A DNA stretch of 41,789 nucleotides from Bilabrum cf. latius (taxonomy: Eukaryota): positions 496,001 to 537,789 of the forward strand of contig OZ237776.1 in assembly GCA_965178125.1 (NCBI GenBank), given 5' to 3'. The notes below the pieces were generated by a model. The model worked only from the letters and a program-made list of their open reading frames with translations. It did not search any database and was not told the origin of the DNA. Shown here piece after piece: positions 1 through 41,789 of this stretch. Both the position numbers and the translations under genes were made by a program. How positions within the stretch are numbered: the stretch's first letter is position 1; every line of letters begins with the position of its first letter.

Positions 1-462
1 TCCTCGCTGCGGCCCGTGCTGGAGAACTCCGACTACGACAGCCCCCCGCTGCAGGGCGCTGCAGTGGTCGGCGAGGACCTCCACGGAAGGAGGGCAGTCG
101 GGGCCAGCAATCCGGGGAGCGGGCTCGTGCCCGGCCCGTCCACTGGCCTCGTGTGGAAGAACAGCACCTTCTCGCAGTGGCCCAAGGACGATGACATGGG
201 ATACAGCATCCGCACGGACAGGTGGAGGTACACCCGTTGGGTGGGCTTCGATTCCCACGCGCGGCAGGGCAAGTGGGACGAGCTCAAGGGGGAGGAGCTG
301 TACGACCAGCAGGAGGATCCCTTCGAGATCACCAACAGGGCGGGGGACCCCGCGGTGGCAGCCAAGAAGGCGGAGCTGTTCGAGCAGCTCAAGCTCGGGT
401 GGAGGGCTGCCCTGCCCAAGCAAGCGGGGGCAGCGCGTGATGGTGCGCGCAAGCAGGTCTGA
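1..462 (+). CDS. Sulfatase, iduronate-2-sulfatase-like, C-terminal part (5' truncated by window)
   Basis: Frame open from base 1. FSQWP...MGYSIRTDRWRYTRWVGFD...ELYD...DPFEITN resembles the IDS/choline-sulfatase C-terminal region (MGYSIRT..YRYT.WV.F, ELY...DP.E..N). Ends TGA 460-462. Confidence 0.8.
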   Translation, partial: SSLRPVLENSDYDSPPLQGAAVVGEDLHGRRAVGASNPGSGLVPGPSTGLVWKNSTFSQWPKDDDMGYSIRTDRWRYTRWVGFDSHARQGKWDELKGEELYDQQEDPFEITNRAGDPAVAAKKAELFEQLKLGWRAALPKQAGAARDGARKQV

Positions 463-634
463 TGCGCTTTCCGGAATTGGCCTGGAGTTGTGCAACCAGT
501 CCTGTCCGGGGCCACTACGATGGGGCAGCAGCGGTCAATGTAGAGCATGCAAGGCATGAAGGTGGCTTTCAGGCGAACCCAGTCCGACCCGGTTGTAGCA
601 AGTACAACGTATTCAGTATACACACAGCTCGCAG

Positions 635-3600
635 TCAACCCCGACCCGGGTCGTCGTCCCCCACACCCGAGGCGGGCTGCTCCTGGGCTGCCCCCGCATT
701 CGATCTACCTTCATCCATCCCCGCAGTTGCATCACCGCTCGCCAGTCGCTGCTCCCTTGCCCTGAGCGCCTCCTGGAACTGCGGGTTGGACTCCTCCATC
801 TGCAGGTAGGCTTGTCCCTGCACCACGGTCCAGTACCTGTACTCGGGCCGGTTCCTCTGCTCCCAGTCCATCTCGCCCTCGAGGGACCGGATGATGCGCG
901 CCTGCTCCAGCACCCACCTGTCCTCGGCCTGCTCCGCGATGTTCTGAAAGGTGTCGCTCATGCTGGCGATCAGAGTGTTGAGCAGCAGCACCGACATGAC
1001 CACCACATACCCCAGCAGGAGCCCCTGCGCCAGGGCACCCGTCACCACCCTCAGAGCGCCTGATACACTCCACACGCCCGCCCCTGCCCCCTCATCCCCA
1101 CCCACACCCGCATCTGCACCCCCTGCCAGCCAGTCCACTTCCTCATCAGCGCTCTCAGCCAGGTCATAGTCCTGCAGCACGATGCGGAAGGACTTGTACA
1201 GCCGCTGCATGAAGAGCCCTCCGCCACCCCCCAGCGCGGGGTCGTGCAGAGAGAAGGACGCCTGCGTATACCCCATGAGCAGGACCACCATGAGTACGCC
1301 GAAGCGGGCCACGTCCTTGCGCAGCATCTCATAGATTGCCACCACATAAGGCCCAGTTTCTGGAAAGCCAAGAACGAAAAACAACGTGCGGCCCCACGCG
1401 CCCAGCGCAGCACCAGTCAGTAGCAGCCGAAAGACGAGCCCAGCCAGCTCGGAATCGCCAAGCCATCCCCCGGCCACAGGCCCTGCATCTGCCCTGCACC
1501 ACGCCTCCTGCTCTTGCGACAAACCAGGGAACACACTTCCCGCCAACCAGCCCAGTGGCCGCCCCACATCCGAGCATACCACCGCCTGTGGCTGTCTCAG
1601 CACCGCCAGCACCGCCAGTGCCGCCACGCACGAGCTGAAGGTCAGTGCCGTGGTGTTCTCCACGAACCCAGCCCCCCTCACACTCAGGTACTCCCGGATG
1701 CCCTCCCTCGCCACCTCCATGCCCTCCACCATCAGCTTGGACAGAGCAAACGCAGTGACCCAGCCCTCCAGCAGCCCGGGGGCAACGCACGCCAGCCGGG
1801 CACGGAAATACGAATCTCCCACCAGCGTCAGCAGCACTGCGCTGGGCCCCGATCCATCGCTGGCACTCGGCGGATCCATCACTCGCAGGGCGCAGCTGTG
1901 CGTGTCCCGCAGCACCCAGGCGTGCTGTTCCCTGGCACCCACCGCCGAGGCCAGCACGATCCCCAGCACGAAGCACAGCAGCATCACTGCATGCTCCACG
2001 AACCGGCGCCCGAATACTTCCTGCGCGAACCGCTGCCACTTCTGCCGCAGCACCTCCCGCACCCTTGGCAGCCGCAGCATGTCCAGCCACTCCGCCTCGA
2101 TGATCAGATCCAGCGCGCTGCGGAACTCGATCCGGGGTGGGGGGCCCGAGTTACCACCGGGGGCGGGTTTCAAGCCTGTCGGTGTCGTTGGCTCCTCCGG
2201 CGCGCCACCAGGCGACGCTCCAACTGGACCGTTCGATTCATTCGATTTATTCGTTCCTCGGCTCGCTGCCGTGCTGCTGGCCCCAGACTCTTTGGATCCA
2301 AGCGGCGGACTGCCCGAATGCACTGCGTCCGCCCCTGCGTGCGGGAGCGCCTCCTGCCTCGCCCTGAGCACTAGCCTCGCCTCTCTCACCGCCCTCGCCT
2401 CCTCCTCGAACTGTTCCCTGGCCCTCCCCCGGTCCCCCTGCACCCCGTCCAGCTCTGCCAGGGGGTACAGCACGCACGATACAGGCCCGTAGGTCCAGAA
2501 TACCTGGCAGCTCGAGTCCAAGATGTGCTAGAACATGCGGCGCCGCCCGAGTCTGGCTGCCAGCTGCAGCGGAGTGAGTCCGGCTGCGCTCCTGACCCTC
2601 TCCAGAGGTGGGCGGCCCATGCGCCTGCCGGGGTCGTGCTCGTGCAGCTCCCTCCAGAGGTCACTCACGTAGTCGTACATGGCCGGCAGGTCGTGCACCA
2701 CGGCCATGTGCAGCGCGTGGTGGCCCATCACATCGGCCACGTACATGTCGCTAGAGGGGCACATGGCCAGCGCGCGCACCAGGGCGGGCTGGCAGGTGCT
2801 CACCTGCGGATGGGAAGGGGGCAGGGTGGTCAGGGGCATTGAAGGGCACCGGTAGCAGCTGTGACGAAGGAGCATGATTGCATACCATGCTACTATGTCC
2901 ATGCACCGGCAACTAAAGGCCGTACCAGCGTACAATTCGCAAGAGTACGGTGCACCACTGGCAGCACCGCGGCGAGACTCACAGCGAAAAGCAGCGGGAG
3001 CTCTCCGTAGTAGCAGCTCGTGTCTCTGTCAGCCGTGAAGCGCTGCCATGAAAAGAAGCTACCTATCGCTCTGTAATGCAGCAACCGAGGTGCTTGCTAC
3101 GCCAGCATTCGGACCCGCTACAAGTCACCGTTAACGACTGCGATGTGAAGAACGGTCTCCCCCTCGTACGCCGAGGGTCGACCATCGCCTGGTCCTACAT
3201 ATTGAGCCTCAACAAGCTTTGGAAACATGCCAACTAGCCAGTCAGCCAATTCGTAGTGCTTGTGCTCATGAAAAAGATAGCACAGGTGCAGAGCAGAAGC
3301 CCCGACAGCATCACGTTTTTTGTTGAAGAATTCCTCAGCATCGTCTCCTTGCTCGCTAGCAACAGCTTTTAACGCCTCGAGGTCCCCTTCTTTAACAATA
3401 TTCACGAGCGTCCCCTTCGTATGGGCGCTTGAAGCCTGAGCATCGTTGCGAAGCTTGGATTCCTGCATAAATGACACCGTGCGATGAAGCATCGGTGGAG
3501 CTTCTGCAGCAACTGTAGAAATTCCATCTGAACCAATCTACGTTTCCTTTGTAGCCATGCTGATTCGTGCTGCGTAGCAAGAACAGCTGTGATCAAAAGT

Positions 3601-3757
3601 CGAAAGATGAAGATCTAGTGATCGACTCACAGCAGAAGCTGCGGGCGAAGGGGCTGCACCTTTGGGCAGCGGCAGCGGCAGAGCGGGAGCCCGCGCCTCT
3701 TCTATCGGGCGCTTTCACGACGCCAGCTGTTGTCTATGGAAGCTGTGGTGGCATCAT
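635..3757 (-). CDS. TRPV-like ankyrin-repeat cation channel (spliced; in-frame TAG codons; 5' exon structure uncertain)
   Basis: Ankyrin motifs YEGETVLHIAVVN, YYGELPLLFA, GHHALHMAV, GLTPLQLAA; WTYGP motif; hydrophobic TM segments; S6 LLLNTLIASMSDTF and TRP-box-like WVLEQARII. GT-AG intron 2982..2804 (GCT|GTGAGT...CGCAG|GTG, phase 0) joins LPLLFA to VSTCQP. In-frame TAG at 3118-3120, 3097-3099, 2528-2530. Tentative first exon from ATG 3757/3754 with intron ~3630..3587; the link from there to the 3118..3492 frame is not resolved. Stop TGA 635-637. Confidence 0.8.
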
Positions 3758-4088
3758 CGAAGCGACCCACTGCAGGCGGCACCACAGCTGCAGTCACGCT
3801 GGCCACCGCTATGGCAGACCAGGATGGTGCGGAGGGCTATGATCAGGGGAGCGGGGAGGGTACCGAGGGGGACGTGGACGTGCCAGTCGTGCGGGGGGCG
3901 GGGGTCTATCTACCCTTGAGCTGTCTGTGGAGGAGCTGAGGCAGCTGCAGAGGGAGCTTCGCCCTTCACTGTGGCACGAACAGCCAACTCCAATGCCACA
4001 GTGTGGGCCGGCAAGTTCATGCCGGCTCTTGAACCTCCGTAAAGCGGAATACCTTGCGCAACAGATTAGTGAGATCATATCAAAAGAG

Positions 4089-4282
4089 AATCAGTATGCT
4101 TCAACTCAACCCACCAGGTCCCTTGCGGCCTTGCCACGGTCGCCCACCCCAACAATCAGTATGCTTCAACTCAACCCACCAGGTCCCTTGCGGCCTTGCC
4201 ACGGTCGCCCACCCCAACAATCAGTATGCTTCAACTCAACCCACCAGGTCCCTTGCGGCCTTGCCACGGTCACCCACCCCAA
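4089..4282. repeat. 65-bp tandem repeat, about 3 near-identical copies
   Basis: TCAGTATGCTTCAACTCAACCCACCAGG... recurs at 4091, 4156 and 4221. It overlaps the last codons and the TGA of the large minus-strand gene. Confidence 0.95.
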
Positions 4283-7200
4283 GCAGCAGGTCAAATACCA
4301 GCTCCGTCACCCCGCTATTCCGCAGCTTGTTGCACCGTAGGTCGCCGCCACCCCTCAAAGAAACCATGTCGTGCAGCTGCATCACTGCCGAAGTGGTAGC
4401 CACGTGCTGCCGCTCGCCCATCTCCCTCAGCTGCCAGATCCTGTTCTCGTACGAGCACTCCACGTCAAGCGGCCCCAGCACCCCGTCATCGTCCAGGTCC
4501 AGGACTCGGAACCAGTACTCCACGGATGTGTTCCCCATGCGGTCCTGCATTGCCTGCCGCAGCCACACGAAGTCCTCGAAGTTCAGGCACCCCGCCCTGC
4601 CGCTGGACAGAGTCCTCGCCCTGCCAGCAAACACCCGCTCCAGCGCATTGCTGCACACCGGCACGATCCGCTGCCCCGCGGGCAGAGAGCCGACAGTGCC
4701 CTCCTGGTCGTCTGCCCCGCCACCAGGTGGGTTGGAGGGACCGCCTCCCCCTCCATTGCCGCCTGCCCCGTGCAGAGGCAGCACCGGGCCCGGGCTGACC
4801 GCGTGCACAAGCTGCTGTAGAGTGAACGTGCCTCTGTTGGCCCGATCCACGGCCCTGTAGAGCGCCTCCACGTCCCTGAAGTATCGAACAGAGAAGGGCA
4901 ACACGTTGTCAGTTGTGGTGACGCTGCACATGAGGAAGGCATCCACCAGGTTGGACGAGCACAGCTCCTTCATCGTGACCCGAGAAGTGGTCAGCCCGTG
5001 CAGCGAGGCAAACAGAGACGCCAGCACGCAGGCCACGTACCTGGACCGGGCCACAGGGTCGCCCCGAATGCCGGACAGGTCGGGGTGCCTGTCCACGAGC
5101 GACTCAACCGCGGGTCTCAGATCGTCCATGTACACGTGGCTCCCGGCGGGGTGGTCGCACACCAGGCCCCCGGACCACACCACGTCATCCGCCCTGTCTC
5201 CTTGCCCCGGATCCTCCTCTGCACCAATGGGACTCCCCTGGCCAGAGTCAGAGCCAGAGTCAGCCCCGGCAGCCCACCGCGTCGCAGCGATCTCGCCCGA
5301 GGACTCGCGCCTGCGCCCGTGCTCGCTCTGTCTCCGCAATTCCAGCTCCGGATCCTGTAGGGGGGCAGAGTCTGGGTGCGGGGAAGGTGCCTCCAGCTCA
5401 AAGGCAGCTGGCAGCCGCGATTTGTCCCCGGGGGCAGGCAGGCCCGGGTACAGCTGGCCCCCGTTGCACCTCGCCGTCGAGGCCTCCACGAGCTCGTCCG
5501 CAGTAAGACCCAGCTGGCTCGTTTCTCCTCCGCCAGAAGAGCCATGTTCCCTCCGCCGCGAGCTCGAAGTCACGGACCCGCGCTTGTCTTTCCGGCCGCC
5601 CTCGCCCTTGTTCCGAACAGTCGTCCCGGCGGGAATCTGACCAGCTGCCACTAGCGTGCGGGTGACCGTGTCGGCGTTGTACACGTTCACAGGGGGCGGG
5701 ATCCACCCGTACGTCACCTGCGCGTCCACTTCGGGGAGGTTCCGCTCGCGGCGCCAGGCTTCCAGGTTCCGCACAGCCAGTCTAGAGGCGCCGCGCATGT
5801 GCCTTGCCTAGTTCCGCTTTGCCTCCCGTCCCAGCCGCATCCGCAGCAGATCCATCGGGCAAAACCCGTGTGCCGCCCCAAGAGAGGCCAGCTGGGCCGC
5901 TGCTGCCTCAGTTGGGTTGCGATACCGCTTGGACTGGAACGCCCGCCCACCGCTATCTTGCGCGGTTGGCGACAAAAGGCCCCCAGAGGTCGCGCGGGTG
6001 CCTCGGTCGTAGTCTGGGTCGTTCTCGTCTGCCAGTCCAATGACCATGTCACTCGTCACAGCGTCATCCGTGGTAGCCGACCGACCATCTCCTTTCCGCA
6101 AGCGGTCCATCTGGCCTACTTTTGCCCTGCCCTGTCCCCGTGCCTGATCCTGTCCCTGATCCAGGTAATCCACGGATGTCTCCAGCGAGCCATCTCCAAA
6201 GGACCCCTCGGCGCCATCCCCGTCCTCCTCCCCGGGCCCAAGATCTCCCGGCCCTGCGCTGCTGATGCTGCCGGAAGACGGCGACCGAGAGCTGTCTCCC
6301 CCACTGTCCCGGCTCTCCTTGCGCATGCTCGAGCGGCCCCGGACGGGGCTGGACTCGCCGGGCAGGGGCGTCTCCCCACCTGACGACTGCCTATCACCCA
6401 GCCCCCCAGGAGCCATGCTTGTCACTCGCAGGTGCACCTCCTTGAGACCAAGAGCGTCGGAGGCAGTTGAATTCCGCGCGTGGGGGACTTTGATCCCGAG
6501 CTTTGCGGCAACCGAAGAGCCGAGCACGCCCGCGGTCTCTTCCCCCGCTTCAGCGCAGCTGGGCAACACCGACACGGCCTTGCTGTCCCCATACATTTCG
6601 AGCAAGAGGGCCTTCAGCATCTCCCTCTGGCTGCTAGGCAGCTTCCGGATGCTGACCTTTGCCGACGAGTCGCCCTGTCCCTTGCCCTCCCCTGCAGAGC
6701 GAGACACAGCACCATGCTCCAGACCGCCTAGCAGCCAGTGCCCGATCGCATCAGATGCATGGGAAAAACTGGCCCCAGAGTCCAGCTGTGGCTATCCACC
6801 GATCCCAGCCACGAACAGCCCGCCTGACACTCTCGCAGACCCGCCTCCTGCAGCGCCCCGCGGTCCCCGGCACCAGTGCGCCAGGGACGGGTCCTGCACG
6901 CGCATCACCCCAGTCACTGCTCGAGGCCCGAACGCATCGGGTTCGAAGGCAGAGTCGATAGGACCCCGCTCTGTCGAAGGCCCGGCTGCTACAGACCGGA
7001 CGGGCTGCTGGCTTGGGCGCAAGACCACGGAGTCGTCCCAGTCCGAGGGTGGGTCAGCCTGCAGCACGCCGTCCAGAGACCTCCGCGCTAGGTCAAACGG
7101 GGTCCTTGGTGGCACCTCCCTGCTTCCTACTTGCGTCGGTGCAGGCACGGCCAGCAGTGCCCTGGGCACCACGCTGCTGCCTAGGCGCGACCGGGGGACG

Positions 7201-10200
7201 CTGTCATCCTCTCCACCCCCCTGCAACCGCGTGTCCTCGTGGTGGCCGTACACAGCCGATTGAATCTTCTGCTGCCGGCGCCGCGCAGGTACCCGGAGAG
7301 GCACCGGGACTAGCCCCGTCTCGCTAGTGCCGCCCCCAGCTGAGCCTGAGGCATCCAACCGGTCAGGCTTACGAGCCATCGCTGCAAGCTGCGCCGCATG
7401 CGAGTACACAGGAGGGCGCGTTCGAGGCTACAAGCGCCTCGGGGGGCATGGGTGACGCAGGAGCATCGTGACCCCGAGTCTGCGAGGCTCTTGCATCACG
7501 CCCGGGTGCCAGATCCTGAGGAACATCGCCATCGAGACCATGGGCCGGGGCCCGGGGGCCACCTCCCACGGCTCGGGGATCGCCCCGATCTGGGGACTCC
7601 AGCAACCAAAGTCCAGAGCAAATCCCCCGCTGGCATACCTAAACGCCCTGCGCCCGACGGTAGACCAGGCAAGGGGCCGTAGGGGATGCGACTGTGACAC
7701 GTGCCCTCTCTGCGTGGAAGACGACTGCCCCATCGCGTGCCTGCGGTCCTTGCACACTGGGCCCATGCCCAGCGGAACCACATCGGGCGCCGCGCCCACG
7801 ATTGCCGCCTGCAGGCGGGCCACAGAGGATGCCGATGAGTGTGACGAGTAAGAGTCTGTCGAGCCAGCGCTGTCCAAGCCACGACGCAGGCCGGCGATAT
7901 TCCGCAGAGCAGTGGCAGCGCGTTTCTCCCAGCGAATTGCCAGCCGCAGAGCCTCCTTGACGCCTGCTGCGGCCCTGCGCTTGTGTCCCGTGCTCATCGG
8001 AAGGGCAGGCACCTGGTCACCCATGCCAGGCGAGCTTGAGGAAGAAGTCTACTGCTTCCTGACAGCGTTGTGCGAGTCTCGGCTGGACCCCGGCCCGCCT
8101 ACTGGCCCTTCGTGTCGCTTGGAGGACGAGGTGGCACCGCCGCGTCCCATTGCGCCGGCAACTCCCTGCCCCAGCACGCCCTCTCTCGCCCGCCAGGTGT
8201 ACCAGTCCACGTCACGCTCCCGCAGCACTCCTCTCCGCAGGGCCTCGGAAACATACACTCGTTCCTGCTCCCACAGCCGCTGGTCCCGGCGCATGGCGCG
8301 GCGAGTACCACTACTGATCCTGGCTGCAGGCGCCTCCAGAGGCACCTCGTCCTCGCGCCTGGCGTCACCCACCCTGTACCCGAACTGCTTGCGCATGTCC
8401 TCGTCTTCCTTCTCCTCGCTCCTGCCGCTGGGTGCTCCTCGCCGACTACCACTCGCACCATTGCGGCGCATGCGATTCTGGGTCTTGGCTCGCAAGTCCC
8501 CACGCAGCTCGCGCAGTAGGGCTCGCAGACACCACGCGCGGCAGGCGCGGTGGTATGACGCGCGCGCAGGCCATATCCGCTGAGACTCGTATGCAACCGC
8601 GTGCTCCGCGAGGTGCATGAGCACTGGGGCCGCGTCCCTAAGCAAGGCAGCGACCAGGCGGGCGCATGAACGACCGCCAACCGGGCTATCACGACTACTC
8701 CCCACATCTGCGGCAGCTCTACACAGGATTTTGACGAAGATTTCCGCATACACTGCAGAGGCAGCTGCTTCTGCCGCGGCAGCCTGATGCGCATCTGCCC
8801 ATGCCTGATGGATCGCACGGAGGTGCAGCACAGGTCCAAAGTAGGCTGGCAGCCGGCAGTGGTCTCTCACCAGGTGCTTCCAGTTGCGGCCATCTGCTCG
8901 GCGCAGCTGTCCCTCAGACCTTAGAGCGTGGTTGGGGCGCCAGCTAGACAGCTGCAGGCCGCGCCAGTCCAGGCCTGCCAGCTGCATCGCCCGTAGCACA
9001 CCGCCTTGACCGCCGCCCAGCACTGGCGCGGCCCCAGCGCTGGCAACTTCCCTAGATGCGGCCCCGGCCCCACTCGTAGCATCAGAGGGTGCCATGAACT
9101 GAGAGGCAGCTGTGGTCACCGGACATGGCACGCTGTTGGATCCAGTGGCCATTCCATCCGGTGCCCCAGCCACAGCGCCGTCAACAGGCATGCCGAGCAC
9201 CGAGGTGCCGCTGGCTACCGCCTCAAATGCCGCGCCTCGTGCAGCAGCAGCCGCAGTGCTGGACAGCTGAGGGTACGGCGGCTGCGTCACCGACATGGGC
9301 GGTGCCGCCGTCCGGCACATGGAGCCCATGGTCCTCTCAATGCCGCTCTGCAGCCTGCGCTCGAAGGGAGGCCCATCCTTGGCCCCTGGCTTGCGGGCCG
9401 TGGCAGAGGTCCTCGAAAGGGACCGCCCCTCGGTGGCGTGCTCTGGTCCATCGCCCGCGTCTCGGCTCGATCCCACATCCAGACCAGTGGAAGAGTCACT
9501 CGGGTACACGTGTCCGTCCTGCGACACAGGCACCCTGCTGCGGGCCCCGAATACGGCCCTCGTGGTGGACGGCACCCGTTCTTTCCAGCGGAGGTACACG
9601 TCCATCGGCAAACGGGGATACAAGCACGCTCGAGCGGCCGCCAGCGCGGCCCGGTGTGCGGTCACCATGGCCAGCAGCAGGCAATGGGGCTAGGCCTCCA
9701 TGCCGGCCTAGCCCTCCCCATCGGCCCCCATCCCGCCCAAGCTCTAGCTTTTCATGTCAAGCCCGAACTGGCCGGGCCATGCGCCGCGCAGCAGCTCCGC
9801 GAGGGTGGCCATGGCAGGGAACACTAGAGCGGGGGCCTGGACCGCCCGCATGCTCTGCAGAGAGAAAGAAGCCGCGCCCAGAGCATCCGCAGGCTGCAGC
9901 CGACTGTGCTCCGGTGTTGTCCGCATCCAGGCGGGGGGGGCATCCCCAGTCGCCGTATTCCGCTCGAGGGCATCACGTGCGCCTGCCGCTGACGAGTCCG
10001 TGCCTCTGTGAGCCGAGCCACGCATGCGGCGCCGCGCATCTTTCAGAATCCATGCCTTCCGGAACCTGGACCCCGAGCCCCCATCATCCAGTCCCACGGG
10101 CGGCTACAAAGCATCGTCAGGGGACACCAGCCGCTTCTGCTGAAGGGTCAGTTCGCCCTTGTCTGCCTTGGCGATGCTCGCGCTCACTGGAGAGTCCTCG

Positions 10201-12617
10201 CGGCCTGGAGCATTCGGAGGATCTACGGCTCGGCTGCGCATGATCAGAGCGCATTCGTCACCCGCTACACGCGCGTCTACCCGCGCCAAGGCCTCGGCAG
10301 TCCCACAGAGATCGGCCCCACGCACCTTCCTGACCATCTGCTTCATGGTCGCATAGGCGGCCTGGCCTGCAGCTCTGGGATCTTCCTCCATTGCTACTAC
10401 AGCCTTGCTTGCCTTGCTCGTCTTGCCTGCTGCGCTAACCTCGCTGCTGCCCTGAATGTCGTCCTCACTGTCGTGCTTGCCCTCGCCGTCCCCCACGCTC
10501 TCCTCCGCTGCCTCCTTGCCCTGCAACCCCACCGCTACCTCCCGCCTCGCCGCCAGCGTGCCCTTTACCGCCCTGACCCTCAGCTCACCAGAGCGCCGCG
10601 CCAGCCCCGATAGCAGGTCCATCACCAGCGGCCAGTGAGTCGCAAAGGCGCACACAATCGCCTCCCCATCAGCGGGCAAAGCCCCGATCATGCTCTGGTA
10701 GGCCTCCCGGTCACCGGCGGGTGCCTGCCTCATCCGTTGTGCGTTGGCCCCCCGCCTGCTCTGCACCACCCCTGCGACCACGGCTGGCCTGGCGCTGGGC
10801 AGGGTGGGGTGCGGCACGTGGTGTAGCATGGGGCACGGAGGCGGGCGCAGCTCCGATCGGATGTCGCGCGAGGCATCTTTTACCCAGGCCGTGCCCTGTG
10901 TCAGTGACGCCTGCACCCAGGCAGCAATCGATTCTGGATCCGTCGGCATCGGAGTCTCGTCCGCATCCCCGCGCTGGGCCTTGCGCCTGACTTGCGCTGC
11001 AGCTGGCGCTGCCACACTGGAGGAGGCAGAGGCGGTCAGGTCCTGCCCGTCAGCACCAGCCCCTGCAGTCGATGTGTGCCGTGAGGCTCGCGGGGAGGAC
11101 TGGGCCGTGCTCTCGTGGTCTGCAAGAGAGCGGGGCATGCGAGCAGGGGACCGGACGGTCAAACTCTGCGCAAAGTGCCCGCTTGCACCCATGGAATTAA
11201 CGCCAGATGCGTCCCCGACAGCTCTCGCTGCAGCCCTGCGAACCCGATCCATCTCTCCTACAGAATCCGGGTCGGAAGGACCGGTGGCATGCGGGCGTTG
11301 GTGCCGCGTGGGCCCAGGGGGTAGACCTTCCAACGAGCTGGGGCCGGTGCTTGGCTCTCTAGCCGGCGGCGCGCCGATGCTGCCCTTGATCGCAGGGCCC
11401 CGCACCAGCCCGCCAAGACTTGCTGCTGCCCTGTCTCTGTCCGGACCTTCCTCCTCACCCTCCTCCTCTCCAATGACTTCGTCCACATCGGACCCATCCC
11501 TCTCTTGGCTAGCTCCTATCGTGGCATCCGCGCCATCCCCAGATACTGCCGCAGAAGCAGCTGCGGCCAGAGGTGGAGACAGGGGCGGGGACTCTCCTCT
11601 CCACGACCTCCGCCTGCTCTCCGCTTTGGACAGAGAGGCGCGCGTGGGGAAGTAGTCCTCCGGGGGAGCGGGCAAGCCCAGGCCGACTCCTGTAGAGCGG
11701 GCGGCCTGCGGGCTGGGAGGGGCGCCACTGGGGCTGCTCGGTCCAGATGTGATTGCACTCGTCACACTTTCCTTGCTATCGAGCCAGGCCAGCGCCTCCT
11801 CGTCGGCACTCACCTCTGAAGGTCCATAACTCTAGCCAGGAGTAGTGGGGGACTCATCACCAGTGCCCGGGGGCGTGCCGTTCCCGCTGCTGCTACCCTC
11901 TGTGGCGCGCGGACTTTGCGACCGGGGCGAAGAACCGCTCCCGCTTCCACTCCCGCTTCCCGTGCCCTCCGCCTGCCTCAGCTCTGAGCCTCCCCGGGAC
12001 ATGGAGCTGGGACTCAGCCCAGGGAGAACCCTGTCCCCGGTACTTGCAGCCCGCTGCAGCGCACGGGCGCGAGCACGGGCGTTGGCTCCCGCGCGCCCTC
12101 TACCCACATAGCCCGCACCCCTGGCCCCCTGCCCCCTCTGAGCACCCGAGGCCCCCGCCGCGGAGGGGAACATGCCCGCCATGCCTGCCTGGGTCCGAGG
12201 CATGGCGGGGCGGCCACCGAGGGCCATCGCGCTCACCGATGCACTCGTCATACTACCACCGCTACGGGCCTGATTGGACTCAGGGGTTGCCGCTGGGTCC
12301 GCACTCCGGTGCCCCTGCCCCCGCGCAGCATCACCCGCAGCACCTGTCACCCCGGTGGACCCCAGGCTGCGGGGCCGCATGGACGGGGAGGGGGTGTGCG
12401 GCTTGGTGGGCTGGAACACCGCGTCCCGTGCATATGCAGCCGCGGCTGCATGTGCCGTGGCCTCTTCCACGGAGGATCTGCTCGAGTGCCTCGTGCCGTC
12501 GGACCTGCTGCTTCGCACCGATGAGGCACGCGAGCCTGCACCGGGGTCGGTTCGGCTGGCACGGGCAGATGAGCTGTCTGAACCGTCCGACTCCGCTCTG
12601 CTGTTCTAATTCTCCAT
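4236..12617 (-). CDS. Very large (~2,793 aa if unspliced) protein with C-terminal PP2A regulatory subunit B'' (PR72/PPP2R3-like) EF-hand region; 10 in-frame TAG codons
   Basis: ORFs 11832..12518, 10104..11813, 9744..10097, 8049..9668, 7428..8024, 6792..7409, 5808..6707 and 4236..5798 share one frame. I read the gaps codon by codon and the only stops are TAG (12606, 11832, 10104, 9744, 9708, 9690, 8049, 7428, 6792, 5808). Start ACA-ATG-G at 12617 (MEN*NSRAESDGSDSSS). C-terminal part resembles B'' motifs: DDLRPAVESLVDRHPDL, NFEDFVWL, TSVEYWFRVLDLDDDGVL. Stop TGA 4236-4238. Confidence 0.75.
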
Positions 12618-13989
12618 TGTTCGCGACAGTCTGGCCCCTGCAGCCCGCAACACGCCGCCTAGTCGGTCCTATTCGTCCCTTGCTGCCATTTGGTCCGCAA
12701 GTCTCTGACGGGTCCACCAGTCACCCAATGACAAGACTGTTCACCACAGAGTGTGAACGTCTCCGCTGCACTCAAATGTCTTTCTGGTGTAACACGCGTA
12801 CCTGCGTCAAAACTGAGAGCGAAGGGGGGCCAGAGAAAAGATCACAGTCAGTAGTCTCGCCGTCCAGGTCGACAAATCCCCGGTGTCAATGCAGACTTTC
12901 ACTTGCCGACTAACAATTCACAATTGTTTTAAATACACTCAGTCCTTGATGCTTCGAAATGCTCTCCAGATCAGCGGGACGATCGCATGATTCCAGCACC
13001 CACACAGCTGTTGCATCACTACACCCTATCCAGGCCTTGCAATCCCTACAGGGACTCAATTGATATTAAACCAGCTGATGCAAATCACAGGATTGTATGG
13101 AATTGATGGTGGGCGGTGATTCCACTGGTAGACTGTGAACACACCATGCACCAAGATCTCCAAAACAAGCCGCCAGAACACAAGCGCCGACGGCCCGGCA
13201 TGTAGGGTCTCTGCCTACTAGTTGCCAGATCACGCTCAAGTAGCTGGCAAGATCAACCCGACATAAAAACCATTTGCCAATCGTCAATCCCACCAGCATT
13301 CTAGCCCGGCCCTCACGGCCAAATTAGCATGAAAGACCGAATTCTCCGGTCAGCAGTGAACAATCGAGCACATTAACTCCGAGAAAGCAAACCCAATGGG
13401 ACTTTTCTCACGTATTTCTTCTCCAGCCGCAACTACAAGGCTAGCGTGTGTCGCGATACAGGCTTTCAATCAGTACTGGTCGGGTACAGCGCGTGAGTAC
13501 CGCTTAGTGGTCTGGAAAAATGCAATTGCTCCGACGATACAGATTACCCGAATCTCAGCCGCCTCCGCTCTCTCGGACAGGTGCTGATAGCTCACAAGGT
13601 ATTTGGAACAGTGTCCATTGCAACGGAACCAACAGAAGAAGCCGCGCAAAAGTTGGTCGCAAAGGAGCGTGCCAGAAATTCGTTGGAGCTGAGCGCCATG
13701 CCTCAGCCAGCTGCAAACGGGTGAAATGTCGAGAGTTTGACTACTCGATGGACCGTATGAGGGCCGGGCCCGAAAAGCTTGATTCCATGTTGAACGAATG
13801 GTGATAGTCCACCCTCATATAATATCGATAGTTGTTTGCCGTTTGCCCTGTCGGGAGAATCCAAGCTGAGACACCGGACGGCCGTGGAAGCGAAGGGTGC
13901 ACCCTCCCGGTGTTCAACTGCAACGACTAATTTCAAACCAGGACATGATGCAGCCCCGCATGCAGATAATAGTGCCCAGCAGTCTCCAT

Positions 13990-16228
13990 TCATTCCTCAG
14001 GCTTGGATTCACCGGCATCCGCAGCCTTCCCGGCATCATCGGCTGCCTTGCGCAGAGTCTGTACCTCAGCCTCCAACGCCTCCTTGGCGGCTCGAAGGGC
14101 CGCCGTCTCTGCTGCAAGTTTTCCCTTCAGCTCGTCGTTCTCTGCCTTGAGGCGCGCGATCTCTGCCTGCGCCGCCTTCAGCGCGTCATCCCCTCCAGCG
14201 CCCGCCCCGCTGGCTGCCCCCGCCGCGGGATCCGCCGCCTTGGCAGCCTTGGCCTGCTCTCGCTCCGCGGCGGCCTTTTTGGCGGACTCGTCCACCACGA
14301 ATCCGGAGCTGCTGCCGGCTCCCGCTCCGCCGGTGGCAGCCCCCGCGCCCGCTCCCTCAGCGGGCTTCATGGAGGCCCGCTTTGGCTTGGCGTCCTTCCC
14401 GCCGAACCACTGGTCCGCAGTGAGGGCAGGGGCTGCCGACACGCAGTCGGGGTACAGATCCGACTGGAAGGACTCGCTCTTGCGAGGCACCTGGAAGGAG
14501 ATGCTGCGGACCTTCTTGTTCTCCAGCTTGATGAAGCGGGCGATCTCGGTCTTGCCCACGTCCACGGCGCGGCGAGGCACCTGGGCGATCCCCTTGGCCG
14601 CGTCTCCCATCGACATGCGGGCGATCTCGTAGGGCTTGGACTTGGGGATTTCCCAGTACCGGATGGAGGCGTCTCCCTTGGCTGCCACGTACAGGATGCA
14701 CGAGGCTTCGTCGTAGAAAGGCATCATCACACCCGCGGCCGAGTCCAGCTCCTGGTGGATGACGGGCGCGTCCAGACCCTTGCCCAGGTCCCACACCTTG
14801 AACTCGCGGCCCGACATGCGGGTGAACCCGGTGGTCACGAAGCGGTTCTTGCCGTCCATCCAGCACATGTTCACGGTCTTGGCACCCTCGTGCGCCGTGA
14901 AGGTCTGCTGGGCCTTCTTGGCGTCAGCCCTCGGGTCCCAGAGCCGGATCTTCTTGTCCTTGCTCGAGGTCAGCAGCAGCTTGCCGTCCTCGCTCCAGCA
15001 CAAGTTGGCGATGGGCTTGCTGTGACCAGTGATCGTGACTGCGTCAGTCAGCTTGGCCACGTCCCACAGCCGCACGGTGTTGTCTCTGGATGTGGATGCC
15101 AGCGTCTGGTTGGCGCAGGGGTGCCACTTGAGCAGCATCGTGTCCTTGTCGTGGCCCTTGAGCACCGCCGAGGGCTCCTCGATGTTCTCCTGCACGCCAC
15201 CCTCGGGGATGCTCCACACCATCACCGTAGCGTCCCTAGAGGTCGATGCCAGCAAGGAGTCGTTGTGTGGTGAAAAGGCCGTGTCCTGCACCTGCGCGCG
15301 GTGGCCCGTCAGCATGGGCACGTCGGGGCGCACCTTGCCGCTGCCGTCCACCGGCTGCACCAAAATCTTGCCGCCGCCGCCACGAGCCGCCACTGCCCAG
15401 TACAGTGCGCTTGCGCTGATCATGTACTGGTCGCCTGCGAATGTTGAACTATCCGAGGGCAGCAAGACGACGTGAACGTGCTGAGTGCATTCGTACGGAC
15501 GGAGCACGTGATACGATTGGCTCACCGGTACCGGAGGCCAGCTGAATATCAAGATATGAGGATTCATCTTTGGACTCGGTTCCAAAAACGTGCCTGCGAT
15601 GGTGTATTTGTTGATGAAGGGGTTGAAGGTCAAATCTTGCTGCTGCTGCTACTGCAAACTCTCGTTGATAGCCAACTACAAAGCAGCATCCAACCAAGCA
15701 TTCCAAGAGCACGGTACAGAGCTTAATATGCACTTATGCTGTGCACGCACATAAACAGGGAAGCTTCCTTTGCATATTCAGGTGTTCTTGGGCACTGAAC
15801 GGTACAGGGACGAGCTACGGATGAACACAAGCATGCCTTGCTTTAGGCCCGAGGTTTGCCATCCGTCAATCCTGAAAGTATTATAATGCTGGAACACTGG
15901 GAATTCCAGATTTGCTTCACGCTCTACATACACTAAAACAAATGCAAGCCACAACGTGGGCGATCCTGACGCATTCCATGTTGAAGCTGTCACATCAAGC
16001 AACACGTGCGGCACAAATTCAGTCAGAGCACAAATATGTATCTATGCAAATGGCATGCCTTGCCATTGGCACATTTGCAGGCGACATATCCACAACTAGC
16101 CCTGAGTCCAGATTTCGCCAAGCGAGCCAAAAACCGCAGATTATCATGCCCTTGCCACGAATGTAATCAGAACTTGCGGTCAAATATTCTCACCTGTAGC
16201 TACTCTACCTAACGAATCGGGAGGACAT
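13990..16228 (-). CDS. Coronin (WD40 actin-binding protein with C-terminal coiled coil), 3 exons, 515 aa, in-frame TAG at codon 8
   Basis: Exons 16228..16194, 15593..15526, 15434..13990 with GT-AG junctions and matching phases (total 1548 nt). N-terminus MSSRFVR*SSYRHVFG matches the coronin signature (VRQSKFRHVFG). WD repeats, KGDASIRYWEI, VPRKSESFQSDLYPD, coiled-coil tail. Stop TGA. Confidence 0.92.
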
Positions 16229-16747
16229 GCCTCAACGAGCTATCAAGTCGGACTAAGCAGTACAAAACGATTCTGCTCAGTCACGCAATTCCTTGCCTCA
16301 AATGCAGAATCTGTGAAGTAGCGTGCACTCTGCAACTCAGGGCGGCCAGGGCGGCACACGCAGCGAGGCGCCAGCTGGCGCCCCAGGCCCTTTCATGTCG
16401 CATTGGGGCATCACCGACTGGTTCTACTAGTCATGACAGTCGCTTCGACTACGCGAGATCCACAGGTGCACTGAGTGAGCAAGTGCGGAGTGGGCTTTTC
16501 TAAACGATACAAATCACAGGCATATCGCGGTGGAATATTCGATGGACAAGAAGCTAGTAGCACGCACATAGCACCAGCACTTGGCCGGTGGCACAACACC
16601 GCAGCCCGTGGCCGCCTTGCCTCCCGTGGTAAGGCCGTGCCCACACCGTGCTGTGGTTCAACCTTGTTGCGCCGTGTGCGCCTGCATGCATGTCAAAACA
16701 GTTCTTTCCTACGGCTTAGCACCGTCTCGGTCCCTAGATCGGATCGA

Positions 16748-17546
16748 TCACTCGTAGATCTGGGTCTCGATGCACGACGTGTACTCGGCGCAGCCCTCGG
16801 GGAACCACAGGCCGATCTCCTTGACGGCATCCTCGGGCACAGCGCTGGCGTGCACGGTGTTGCGGCCGATGTCCACGCAGAAGTCGCCGCGGATGGTGCC
16901 GGGCGTGGCGTCAGCGGGGTTGGTGGCGCCCACCAGCGAGCGGCCAGCCTTGATGGCTCCGAGGCCCTCCCACACCATGGCGAACACGGGGCCGGAGGTC
17001 ACGTACTCCACCAGAGAGGGGAAGAACCTGCAAGTAACGAACGTGTTGAGCGTGTGGCAAAGATAACTCGCGCCTGATGCACATCGTTAAGCACAACATC
17101 ATTTCGCGTGACAATCCTGAAATCAGCTCACTTCTTCTCGGTCAACTCAGAGTAATGCTCGGATAGGAGTTCCTTAGTGGCAGTGGTCATCTTCGCGGCG
17201 ACCAGCTTAAGTCCCTTCTGCGAAACAAAGAAGAGAAAGCCTGTCGGTACTGCAAGGGTGCCTAGCTGTTCATTTGCAGCTATGATGCACATAGAATCGG
17301 CAGTAAATCAGCCCTAAAAATACAATTTCGTAGCGCACACAATTTAATAGAACAGTTTGCAGCTAATGTTGACATCCAAGTTTTCATTGCTGCAGATCGA
17401 AGCCCCGACTAGCTCGAACAACAGGTGTTGCATGAACTCACCCGCTCGAAGCGGCCGATGATCTCGCCGACAAGACCACGCTGCACACCATCGGGCTTGA
17501 TCATCACATAAGTACGCTCCTTCTTGGCATCAGCAGCGGCGGCCAT
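16748..17546 (-). CDS. NDK: Nucleoside diphosphate kinase, 3 exons, 156 aa
   Basis: Exons 17546..17442 ([26 protein letters not shown]), 17217..17132 and 17027..16748 ([27 protein letters not shown]), GT-AG introns, total 471 nt. Stop TGA. Confidence 0.95.
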
Positions 17547-17691
17547 CTTTCACTAGTTGTCCTTAAGATGCGTTGGGGAGGGCCGATGCCGCAGCCAACT
17601 CCAAGGTTCGCTGGGGTTCTCTCCGAACTAAGCACATCTAAACGCGGCGCAACGAAGACTTCAAAAAGCATTCAAGCAATATAAAACGTCG

Positions 17692-18113
17692 CCCACACAC
17701 CTTCGACCCATGCAGCCATCCGCGGCCCTCGCCGCACATCTCGACACACCCTCGCCTTACCCTAACCCTAACCTATGCAGCCATCCGCGACCCTCGCCAC
17801 ACATCGGCCGCACACCCTCGCCCCTTGCAGCCATCCGCGGCCCTCGCCACACATCGGCCGCACATCCTCGACCCATGCAGCCATCCGCGGCCCTCGCCAC
17901 ACATCGGCCGCACACCCTCGCCCCTTGCAGCCATCCGCGGCCCTCGCCACACATCGGCCGCACACCCTCGCCCCTTGCAGCCATCCGCGGCCCTCGCCAC
18001 ACATCGGCCGCACACCCTCGCCCCATGCAGCCATCCGCGGCCCTCGCCACACATCGGCCGCACACTCTCGCCCCTTGCAGCCATCCGCGACCCTCGCCAC
18101 ACATCGGCCGCAC
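17692..18113. repeat. Subtelomeric 50-bp C-rich minisatellite (~8 copies)
   Basis: TGCAGCCATCC anchors at 17711, 17777, 17827, 17877, 17927, 17977, 18027, 18077. Runs directly into TTAGGG. Confidence 0.95.
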
Positions 18114-39538: not shown

Positions 39539-39582
<44 letters not shown>

Positions 39583-39779
39583 GGTTAGGGTTAGGGTTAG
39601 GGTTAGGGTTAGGGTTAGGGTTAGGGTTAGGGTTAGGGTTAGGGTTAGGGTTAGGGTTAGGGTTAGCGCAGGTGTGGGGGGCAACTGTCGGGATTTGGAT
39701 ATTTGAAAAAGCAAAGAGGGGTGCCGTTGCGTTTTTCTGGCCTGTGCCGGGCTTGGTGGGCAGGGTGCGAGGGCGCAAT

Positions 39780-39786
39780 GAGGAGG
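39780..39786 (+). promoter_or_regulatory. Shine-Dalgarno sequence
   Basis: GAGGAGG 5 nt upstream of ATG 39792. Confidence 0.8.
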
Positions 39787-39791
39787 GGACG

Positions 39792-40562
39792 ATGGAACGG
39801 GTTGTGGTCGAGATCGAGGCGGGGGTCGCGCAAGTGCGCCTGAACCGTCCTGACAAGAAGAACGCGGTGGATATTGCCATGGCCGAAGCGATTGTCGCGG
39901 CGGGGCAGGGCCTGCGCGACGCGGATATTCGCGCGGTGGTGCTGTCGGGGGCAGGGGGCGCGTTTTGTGCGGGCCTCGATGTGATGAGTTTCGCGCAACT
40001 GGCCCAACCGGACATGCTGGCGCGGTTCATGGCGCGCAGCCATGACGACTGTAATCTGATGCAAGAGGTCGCGATGATCTGGCAGCGGCTCGACGTGCCG
40101 GTGATCGCGGCCTTGCAGGGGGTGGCCTATGGCGCCGGGTTTCAGATGGCGCTGGGCGCGGATATTCGGATCGCGGCCCCGGACACGAAGCTGGCGATCA
40201 TGGAGATGAAATGGGGGCTGATCCCCGATATGGGCGGGATGGTGTTGCTGCCACGCCTGACGCGGTCGGACGTTATTCGGCGCATGACCTATACCGCGCG
40301 GCCCATTGATGGGGAGCAGGCCGAACGCTGGGGGCTGGTAACGGAGCTTGCCGAAGATTCGGTTGCGGCGGCCACGCAGATGGCGGCAGAGATCGCTGGC
40401 AAAGGGCCGAACGCGATCAAGGCCGCCAAGCGCCTGATCGGACTGGCCGAGACGGCGGGGCGCGCGGAGGTATTGCTGGCTGAGAGCGCCGAGCAAAAGG
40501 CCCTGATCGGGCAGGCCGAGCAGATGGGCATCATCGCGGCCAATATGGCGCGCGGGGGCTGA
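39792..40562 (+). CDS. Bacterial enoyl-CoA hydratase/isomerase (crotonase family), 256 aa
   Basis: LNRPDKKNA, AFCAGLD, PVIAALQGVAYGAG, MEMKWGLIPDMGG motifs; SD-supported start; no introns. Confidence 0.92.
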   Translation: MERVVVEIEAGVAQVRLNRPDKKNAVDIAMAEAIVAAGQGLRDADIRAVVLSGAGGAFCAGLDVMSFAQLAQPDMLARFMARSHDDCNLMQEVAMIWQRLDVPVIAALQGVAYGAGFQMALGADIRIAAPDTKLAIMEMKWGLIPDMGGMVLLPRLTRSDVIRRMTYTARPIDGEQAERWGLVTELAEDSVAAATQMAAEIAGKGPNAIKAAKRLIGLAETAGRAEVLLAESAEQKALIGQAEQMGIIAANMARGG

Positions 40563-40573
40563 GAGAACAGACA

Positions 40574-40608
40574 AAAGCCCCCCAACGTGCTGCCAAGTGG
40601 GGGGCTTT
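40574..40608. terminator. Probable bidirectional rho-independent terminator
   Basis: Perfect 11-bp inverted repeat AAAGCCCCCCA / TGGGGGGCTTT with a 13-nt loop between two convergent bacterial genes. Confidence 0.75.
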
Positions 40609-40691
40609 CAAAAGAGCTTGATCGCGCGTGTCACGATCCGCGCCGAAAGGAAGATGCCTCCGGCGGGGATATTTAGGAAAGCAAAGAGCGG

Positions 40692-41789
40692 CTAGCCGAT
40701 CTCGGCCAAGCGGGCGAGGGCGGCTTTGAGTTTGGCCTCCTCGGCCTCTTTCTGGGCCAGCAGCTCGCGGTTCTCGGCCACGACCTCATCCGGCGCGCTC
40801 GCGACGAATTTGGGGTTGTTGAGACGGCCCCTGAGGCCCCCTAGGTCCTTGGCGAGCTTGCCCATGGCCTTTTCCAGCCGCGCCTTTTCCTCGTCTACGT
40901 CGATCAGATCGGCGAGCGGCAAGCAGAAGGTGGCGCCCTCGACTGCGATGGTGACGCTGCCTTTGGGCAGGGTGTCCACCGGGGTCAGGCTTTCGATGCG
41001 CGCGAGGCGTTTGATCATCGTCTCGTTGTTGGTCCAGGCGGTTTGGCCGGCCTCGCTCAGCTCAAGGCACTGCATATGGACCTTGAGGCCCACAGGCACG
41101 TGCATTTCTCCGCGTGCGGAGCGGACGTTTTCGATCAGGCTGATCACCCAGTTCATCTCGCGGCTCGCGGCCTCGTCGGTCAGATCGGCGGCGGCATATG
41201 TCGGCCAATCGCCATGCACGAGCATTTTCTGGCGGCTCGCAAGGGTGCCCCAAAGCTCTTCGGTGATGAACGGCATAAACGGATGCGCCATCAGCAAGCA
41301 CTGGTCGAGCACCCATGCCATGGTCTGGCGCGTTTCCTCTTTTTGCGCGTCGGTGCCGTCGAGCAGCAGGGGCTTCGACAGCTCCACATACCAATCGCAG
41401 ACCGTGCCCCACACGAAGCTGTAAAGCGCGCTGGCGGCGTCGTTGAAGCGGTAGGCGTGGAGCGCCTCGTCGATGACCTCGCGCGTTTTCGCGGTCTCGC
41501 CGATGATCCAGCGGTTGACCGTCTCGGTGCAGGCGTCGGGCTTGGTGGTCGCGCCCTCATAGGCACCGTTCATTTCGGCAAACCGGCAGGCGTTCCACAG
41601 CTTCGTGCCGAAGTTGCGATAGCCTGCGATGCGGTCTTTGCTGAGCTTGAGAACCCCGCCGATGGAGGCCATGGAGGCGTTGGTAAACCGCAGCGCATCG
41701 GCCCCGTATTCGTCAACGATCTCAAGCGGGTCGATGACGTTGCCGGTGGTCTTGGACATTTTCTTGCCCTTCTCGTCGCGCACGAGCTG
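40692..41789 (-). CDS. valS: Valyl-tRNA synthetase, C-terminal part (5' truncated by window)
   Basis: KMSKT (KMSKS-type) motif, [38 protein letters not shown]-terminal coiled coil with [11 protein letters not shown]. Ends at TAG 40692-40694. Confidence 0.96.

Follow-up and report, generated by a model that had tools for sequence, protein, structure and literature searches.

In-frame TAG codons, very probably read as glutamine, in a TRPV-like channel gene and a neighbouring gene of a GC-rich eukaryotic contig

Nuclear genetic codes in which UAG, and not UAA, has become a glutamine codon (the type of NCBI table 15) are described, in the consulted parts of two sources, for the fornicate Iotanema spirale, the ciliate Protocruzia tuzeti and two phyllopharyngean ciliate lineages (PMC11687900; PMC5304391). 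Codes in which both UAA and UAG (UAR) are read as glutamine (table 6) are assigned in the same parts to many ciliates, Ulvophyceae, Hexamita, Streblomastix and Amoeboaphelidium protococcarum (PMC11687900; PMC5304391). The consulted part of the former source further gives UAG as leucine in an uncultured rhizarian and some phyllopharyngeans and as serine in the green alga Scotinosphaera, and it names the rhizarian, Iotanema, Scotinosphaera, Protocruzia, some phyllopharyngeans and one oligohymenophorean as lineages in which UAG and UAA have different meanings (PMC11687900). Nuclear code changes are few outside the ciliates, and cases with split meanings of UAG and UAA are fewer still. Here, we analyze a stretch of 41,789 nucleotides of Bilabrum cf. 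latius DNA (contig OZ237776.1, positions 496,001 to 537,789; this whole stretch is called the window below), the left part of which carries a gene predicted to encode a TRPV-like channel, and report that TAG is a sense codon in this gene and in its upstream neighbour, that its meaning is very probably glutamine, and that the change is probably confined to TAG.

TAG as a sense codon in conserved and transcribed genes

The TRPV-like gene consists of two exons (Table 1), and its assignment to this type of channel is based on homology. Exon 2 matched the solved chains of Inactive, Nanchung, TRPV3, TRPV6, TRPV5 and TRPV2 with E-values from 1.6e-24 to about 1e-14, the aligned stretches being the last ankyrin repeats, the W.YGP linker, the S5 segment, and S6 together with the TRP helix. 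In phmmer searches, exon 1 hit Nanchung at E 1e-8 and 2rfa, the ankyrin domain of TRPV6, at E 5.8e-8; it also matched the Pfam families Ank_2 (E 1e-6), Ank_4 and Ank and thus encodes TRPV-type ankyrin repeats at the N-terminus. The linker and pre-S1 region, FWTYGPVSCVLYPLAELD, aligns with FWRYSNITCSAYPLNALD of Inactive and WAYGPVSSSLYDLTNVD of TRPV3, and, of 127 aligned homologue stretches, 126 keep the W of the linker and 122 its G. Alignment with Inactive and TRPV3 extends to the S4-S5/S5 and S6 segments, and the TRP helix following S6, LLLNTLIASMSDTFQNIAEQAEDRWVLEQARII, aligns with TRPV3. Pfam Ion_trans scored 20.6 bits, which is under the 25-bit cut-off, and for this reason we treat the protein as TRPV-like and not as a proven member of the family. 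A word-indexed protein search with exon 2 gave no match, and an exhaustive HMMER search was used instead; the latter returned 1094 relatives at E ≤0.001, including 65 at ≤1e-30, with the best being 41% identical. Taken at the level of sequence, the window gene encodes a TRPV-like channel.

The intron between the two exons was placed at 2982-2804 because the reading frame switches there, its ends are GT-AG, the protein on both sides is collinear with TRPV channels (YYGELPLLFA/VSTCQP against YFGE.PL..A, the slash marking the exon boundary), and an orthologous gene has an intron at the same LPLLFA/VSTCQP boundary (positions 1722-1954 of its contig). This orthologue is found on the metagenome contig L002 (7707 nt, GC 0.55), which also carries a sulfatase gene convergent with the TRPV-like gene and is thus syntenic with the left end of the window. 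Identity between L002 and the window is 108/186 residues in exon 1 and 402/666 in exon 2.

The frame of the TRPV-like gene (914 codons) contains four TAG, no TAA and no TGA, while the other two frames of the same stretch hold 8, 5 and 37 of these triplets, respectively. When four window genes with 4300 codons are pooled, TAG/TAA/TGA occur 15/0/0 times in frame and 53/10/149 times off frame, and the probability that all 15 in-frame stops would be TAG given the off-frame mix is 9e-10. The L002 genes (2089 codons) show the same pattern, with 16/0/0 in frame and 29/26/94 off frame; eight of the 16 TAGs are in the TRPV gene and eight in two sulfatase frames, several of the latter within the Pfam Sulfatase domain. 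TAG makes up 9% of the glutamine-type codons in the window and 19% in L002, if it is counted among them. Alignments with the solved TRPV chains, with 150 homologues, with L002 and with a closer relative (described next) are gap-free across the TAGs. The original prediction, made from the letters of the window, had placed three TAGs within the ankyrin domain with frame and motif spacing preserved; they stand exactly as claimed, in the peptides quoted and with gap-free alignments through each of them, and the support does come from a folded domain rather than from a low-complexity region.

The closer relative is known from a short public protein, P0271, which covers 73% of exon 1 at 93% identity, and from its cluster mate P0277. 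It reads NGDL-D/A-RVRMLA-K-QAPRLL, that is, the column of the TAG at 3118 is D in P0271 or A in P0277 and the column of the TAG at 3097 is K in both. Sense residues at these columns with equal spacing rule out that the two codons are excised, and short introns, one of two ways in which the original prediction had allowed that it could be wrong, hence fail to explain the exon-1 TAGs. Both short open reading frames (ORFs) end in ...GSFFSW, where the window has CAG (Q) followed by the CYYGELPLLFA motif, and the simplest reading would be that the relative has a TAG at this point. More generally, P0213, P0140, P0147, P0226, P0271 and P0277 are public short 'proteins' that represent pieces of the TRPV-like gene, split at TAGs by standard-code gene calling; the gene in question belongs either to the organism behind L002 or to the 93% relative.

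The second way, pseudogene decay, does not hold either. Between the window and L002 TRPV genes, 792 codon pairs in ungapped blocks gave pS 0.76 (saturated), pN 0.27 and dN 0.33, and neither copy has a frameshift, a TAA or a TGA inside its frame. By these comparisons the window gene appears intact and under purifying selection.

Four public sequencing runs (X1, X5, X7 and X11) were aligned to positions 1-16500 of the window; none is recorded as RNA, and X5, X7 and X11 were guessed to be RNA. X1 is DNA-like, with an even depth of 10-14 and no splice joints. By comparison, X5, X7 and X11 carry three joints (12799>13410, 15433>15525 and 15592>16193) with CT..AC ends, which equal GT..AG on the minus strand, and their depth varies more than 50-fold across neighbouring genes (in X5, about 370 over the coronin gene, 43 over a 2834-codon frame and 2-7 over TRPV). 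This 2834-codon frame is the next gene upstream of the TRPV-like gene on the same strand and holds 11 TAGs. X5 contigs cover 4242-12116 and 12154-12799, the latter then spliced to 13410, with zero differences and zero gaps relative to the window and with all 11 TAGs included, and X11 and X7 pieces also span several of them. Since the 11 TAGs are unchanged in the spliced X5 contigs, hidden introns and U-to-C editing are excluded for this gene. Inside TRPV exon 2, an X1 contig (at 2424) and an X5 contig (at 2764) depart from the window with 255 unlike letters; these contigs may stem from an allele or from a paralogue, and P0271 and P0277, with their 93% identity, show that a close copy exists somewhere.

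Collectively, these data bear on the alternative that the TAGs are true stops, in a TRPV pseudogene undergoing decay or in a gene from which short introns or RNA editing remove them. Intervals bounded by GT..AG, 20-400 nt long and a multiple of three in length, do span each TAG, but there are 73-107 of them per TAG, an uninformative count that reflects chance; the RNA cover of the TRPV gene is also thin, and pieces across its TAGs are not shown. Against this stand the 914 codons free of TAA, TGA and frameshifts, pN far under pS, the gap-free alignments, by which excision would remove conserved ankyrin residues, and the TAGs of the neighbouring gene that persist in spliced RNA-type contigs. We consider this alternative highly improbable and close to refuted. 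TAG is a sense codon in the window organism, within conserved, selected and transcribed genes.

The amino acid at the TAG positions

The short protein P0213, which covers the column of the TAG at 2528 and is identical to the window at 43 of 66 positions of the segment shown, led to L002 and to a second metagenome contig, L001. To assign a meaning to TAG we relied on pairs of a TAG in one gene and the residue facing it in the other, kept only if at least 9 of the 20 flanking positions were identical, which left eight pairs, all from the window and L002 copies of the TRPV-like gene. Opposite the window TAGs, L002 has GAC (D) at 3118 and CAG (Q) at both 3097 and 2528. For five TAGs of L002, the window counterparts are AAG (K), GAG (E) and, three times, CAG (Q). 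The last three lie in the contexts VREVLR-Q-KWQRF, FRIVL-Q-DYDLAESADE and EGEMDWE-Q-RN, where 16-19 of the 20 flanking positions are identical. In total, five of the eight partners are glutamine, all of them CAG, and the rest are K, E and D. With conditionals derived from BLOSUM62 and a flat prior, the eight pairs give a posterior of 0.979 for Q, 0.018 for E and 0.002 for K; the binomial probability of at least five glutamines in eight is 3.7e-5 at a glutamine frequency of 6% (3.8-3.9% was observed).

Four TAGs with flanks identical at 1-2 of 20 positions were left out, namely codon 7 of the window gene (2/20), which faces Q (CAA), and three L002 TAGs that face G, A and a gap. Two TAGs in the C-terminal part of L001, one facing CAG (8/20 flanking positions) and one facing CGA (R, 4/20), were likewise not counted. 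L001 and L002 agree in the TRPV gene as far as ...NDTYSSI, beyond which L001 has a different, longer C-terminus with four more TAGs; L001 may be a paralogue, derive from recombination or be a chimeric contig.

The more distant homologues are less telling. The 150 best homologues were aligned to both exons, the counts below being aligned stretches, with some proteins giving more than one. The column of the TAG at 3118 (102 stretches) holds E36 D19 A17 R6 K4 S4 T4 G3 P3, that at 3097 (100 stretches) E20 D16 A12 K11 G10 R10 S6 T5 Q4, and that at 2528 (127 stretches) Q23 E19 S18 D15 A13 N8 T6 V4 K4. Among the solved chains, the last of these columns is R in Inactive and K in TRPV3; in other proteins, it is Q in L002/P0213 and in P0121 and E in P0160. 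By these alignments, the three columns are variable surface positions of the ankyrin domain that require a residue without indicating which, and a profile built on them has low power.

It follows that not all of the grounds given in the original prediction hold. The residue next to MF and ahead of the WTYGP motif, which it had offered as support for glutamine, is weak evidence given the spread at column 2528, and the tabulation it proposed for the three columns shows variable positions that slightly favour glutamate, not glutamine. The MFQHL that it gave for TRPV5/6 was not confirmed with a 48-residue query, for which the five alignments shown displayed generic ankyrin proteins. Its inference of a sense codon, most likely glutamine, is nevertheless borne out on other grounds, that is, by the orthologue pairs and by the in-frame counts.

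The distant columns do provide the best case for another amino acid, with glutamate as the leading candidate and lysine after it: the homologue profile favours E (0.50, compared to 0.055 for Q), E, K and D are all found among the orthologue partners, and codes with UAG as glutamate exist according to the consulted parts of PMC11687900 and PMC12153298. However, the profile is drawn from variable surface positions and has the low power noted above, whereas five of the eight orthologue partners are glutamine, always as CAG and three times in contexts with 16-19 of 20 flanking positions identical, which leaves E and K with the small posteriors already given. We therefore regard glutamate or lysine as a very unlikely meaning of TAG. 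We favour glutamine because, in the orthologue pairs, TAG stands opposite CAG far more often than opposite any other codon.

Terminators and the extent of the probable code change

All five gene ends in the window (sulfatase, TRPV, the 2834-codon frame, coronin and nucleoside diphosphate kinase, NDK) are TGA, and the three gene ends of L002 are TGA, TGA and TAA. TAG is thus the terminator in none of eight genes, a small sample. No TAA was found in frame in 6389 codons (4300 in the window and 2089 in L002). In the window, CAA accounts for 19 of 157 glutamine codons, from which about two TAA would be expected beside the 15 TAG, and the zero observed is not significant. In L002, CAA accounts for 25 of 68 glutamine codons and TAA is about as frequent as TAG off frame (26 vs. 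29), and the absence of TAA beside 16 in-frame TAGs has a probability of 6.5e-4 if TAA tracked CAA.

These counts are the main test of whether both TAA and TAG might be glutamine (the UAR code of NCBI table 6, found in many ciliates, ulvophytes, hexamitid diplomonads, an oxymonad and an aphelid), with TAA being just rare in a GC-rich genome. The window by itself would allow such a code, given the low use of CAA there and the TGA at all five gene ends, and the lone TAA 'terminator' of L002 is followed by a TGA seven codons further on. The TAG-rich and TAA-free frames of L002, at a GC content of 0.55, speak against it, and we consider a UAR code unlikely. Provided that TAG is a sense codon, the change is probably one of TAG only.

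The same gene ends are relevant to a further possibility, namely that TAG is ambiguous, i.e., a terminator in some contexts and read through as glutamine in others by a near-cognate or suppressor tRNA, as in codes of the Condylostoma or Blastocrithidia type. In its favour, just eight gene ends were observed, and the two most covered genes, coronin and NDK, do without TAG in about 700 codons. Nonetheless, no gene of the eight ends in TAG, partial read-through could not deliver useful amounts of a protein that contains 11 TAGs, and TAG reaches 9% (window) to 19% (L002) of the glutamine-type codons. Hence, an ambiguous TAG seems quite unlikely to us.

It is important to note that several observations weigh against a glutamine code as proposed here. 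With respect to the amino acid, the nearest relatives have D or A in one exon-1 TAG column and K in the other, and Q in neither; three of the eight well-aligned orthologue pairs are not glutamine, and all pairs come from a single gene pair; and the weighted profile posterior over the three TAG columns is 0.50 for E, 0.14 for A, 0.10 for D, 0.07 for K, 0.06 for S and 0.055 for Q. With respect to expression, no splice joint for the TRPV-like intron was seen in the four public runs over positions 1-16500 (67 pieces are not listed); X5 bears the label 'RNA? (probably DNA)' and, like X7 and X11, was read as RNA here from splice joints and depth profile; and the cover of the TRPV gene in the RNA-type data is thin (X5 depth about 2-7), pieces over its TAGs not being among those listed. 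With respect to termination, the TAA at the end of the L002 TRPV frame is the sole candidate for a TAA terminator. Finally, ARAGORN found zero tRNA genes in the window, L001 and L002, and the window does not contain eRF1.

Having weighed these points, we hold it very probable that TAG is read as glutamine throughout this genome. By analogy with Iotanema, Protocruzia and other UAG-reassigned lineages, the decoding would involve a tRNA-Gln whose CUA anticodon would, under the wobble rules, pair with UAG and not UAA, and an eRF1 that would have lost recognition of UAG (PMC11687900; PMC5304391). Under such a mechanism the code change would be TAG-only, with TGA, and probably TAA, serving as terminators.

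Window map and comparison with known systems

The features of the left part of the window are listed in Table 1. The TAG at codon 7 may lie upstream of the true start of the protein, given that the P0277 ORF begins at the residue that equals the alternative ATG. The two TRPV-like exons differ in composition, exon 1 having GC 0.52 and GC at third codon positions (GC3) 0.52 and exon 2 having GC 0.66 and GC3 0.79; exon 1, the GC-poorer of the two, holds three of the gene's four TAGs. Across genes, the highest-covered ones, coronin and NDK, have no TAG in about 700 codons and the weakly covered ones about 4 TAG per 1000 codons, numbers too small to show avoidance.

Table 1. Positions of genes, exons, introns and in-frame TAG codons in the left part of the window; TAG between hyphens marks the codon within its peptide
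Feature	Position	Strand	Description
Sulfatase gene, 3' end	1..462	+	TGA stop; convergent with the TRPV-like gene; same neighbour in L002
TRPV-like exon 2	635..2803	-	722 codons (2803-638, begins VSTCQPALV) and TGA 637-635; end of ankyrin domain, WTYGP linker, putative transmembrane/pore region, TRP-helix-like RWVLEQAR
In-frame TAG 3	2528-2530	-	Exon 2 codon 92, RRRMF-TAG-HILDSSCQVFWTYGP; last ankyrin repeat ahead of WTYGP linker
TRPV-like intron (inferred)	2804..2982	-	179 nt, GTGAGT...CGCAG, GT-AG, phase 0
TRPV-like exon 1	2983..3558	-	192 codons from first ATG; N-terminal ankyrin repeats to YYGELPLLFA; Pfam Ank_2, TRPV matches, L002
In-frame TAG 2	3097-3099	-	Codon 154, RMLA-TAG-QAPRLL
In-frame TAG 1	3118-3120	-	Codon 147, NGDL-TAG-RVRML; ankyrin repeat helix
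Exon 1, alternative start ATG	3492	-	Matches P0277 ORF start
In-frame TAG 4 (doubtful)	3538-3540	-	Codon 7 counted from first ATG at 3558
65-bp tandem repeat	4089-4282		Three copies, 99% matches, just 3' of the 2834-codon frame; X1 and X5 contigs both break at 4242
2834-codon frame	4236..12740	-	Codons 12740-4239; low-complexity protein with C-terminal EF-hand_13; 11 TAG, 0 TAA, 0 TGA; TGA end
5' intron of the 2834-codon gene	12800-13409	-	Removed in RNA-type contigs, joint 12799>13410
Coronin gene, last exon	13990..15648	-	TGA stop, TAG-free, high cover in RNA-type runs; control for splicing and stop use; joints 15433>15525, 15592>16193
NDK gene	16748..17549	-	Three exons, TAG-free, TGA stop; control

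The right part of the window is of a different nature. Positions 17776-39666 begin with a 50-bp repeat (6.8 copies, 17776-18113), followed by eleven TTAGGG arrays (20-199 copies) alternating with 155-bp satellite arrays, with a strong GC skew of about +0.4, and look like a subtelomeric or telomere-associated block, though internal to the window. Past the last TTAGGG array (39542-39666), positions 39786-41789 carry a bacterial-type enoyl-CoA hydratase (+ strand) and part of a valyl-tRNA synthetase (ValRS; - strand), namely its C-terminal 356 residues, with TAG as the stop. Two Dinoroseobacter sp. contigs from metagenome-assembled genomes (MAGs; L003 and L004) share 92-93% identity with this ValRS piece, compared to 54-75% for the remaining 78 loci returned, most of which are named Rhodobacteraceae/Paracoccaceae. 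This bacterial end is probably a chimeric assembly join or contamination, with transfer being a less favoured explanation, and hints at a marine, xenic source.

The type of code proposed here, with UAG as glutamine and UAA unchanged, is itself already known. What could be added concerns the lineage: we suggest, tentatively and with less than even confidence, that a GC-rich, non-ciliate clade consisting of the window organism, the 93% relative and the more distant L001/L002 relative uses UAG, and only UAG, as a reassigned glutamine codon and UGA as its main terminator, and that no description of this lineage as a code variant exists. Judging from the Dinoroseobacter-like fragment co-assembled with the window, a marine origin of the clade is probable. 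A search with the coronin protein returned one 99% match in Logan and otherwise identities of at most 45%. A full-text literature search, which did not cover subscription journals, found no report of UAG as glutamine in a GC-rich non-ciliate besides Iotanema. An aphelid origin (Amoeboaphelidium, UAR as glutamine) was considered and rejected, on the grounds of a GC content of about 40% vs. 55-67% and no named close matches. If the suggestion is true, the rare separation of UAG from UAA would have one more independent origin beyond the ciliates and Iotanema, with DNA, RNA and synteny data behind it, and a GC-rich lineage with ordinary gene structure would independently test how UAG escapes from UAA (as proposed, via a CUA-anticodon tRNA and a change in eRF1). 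On the practical side, annotation with the standard code will truncate or split the genes of the window organism and its relatives.

As a channel, the window protein resembles the animal TRPV1-6 and the insect Inactive and Nanchung in that the ankyrin repeat domain, YYGE.PL, the WTYGP linker, the putative S5-pore-S6 region and the TRP-helix-like segment all align. It is unlike them in its distance, with the best homologues only about 41% identical, and in carrying a low-complexity insert of about 100 residues past the WTYGP...LD linker as well as further inserts in the transmembrane region.

As a code, the closest counterparts are those of the Iotanema and Protocruzia type, which share in-frame TAG at glutamine positions, TGA as a terminator and, probably, a TAA that is not a sense codon, and for which the same mechanism would be expected. 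The window is different in its GC-rich genic part (57-67%), in its long genes and TTAGGG arrays and in GT-AG introns that measure 91-610 nt, features unlike those of ciliate macronuclear DNA. UAR codes are alike in that a stop has become glutamine while TGA is left as a terminator, and unlike in their use of TAA, of which the 6389 codons examined here have none in frame; within that group, the genomes of Amoeboaphelidium have about 40% GC according to the consulted part of PMC10608142 (Table 1), compared to 55-67% here. Finally, the codes with UAG as leucine or serine differ in the amino acid, as zero of the eight orthologue partners of TAG are leucine or serine, and yet they have in common with the code proposed here that UAG has become uncoupled from UAA.

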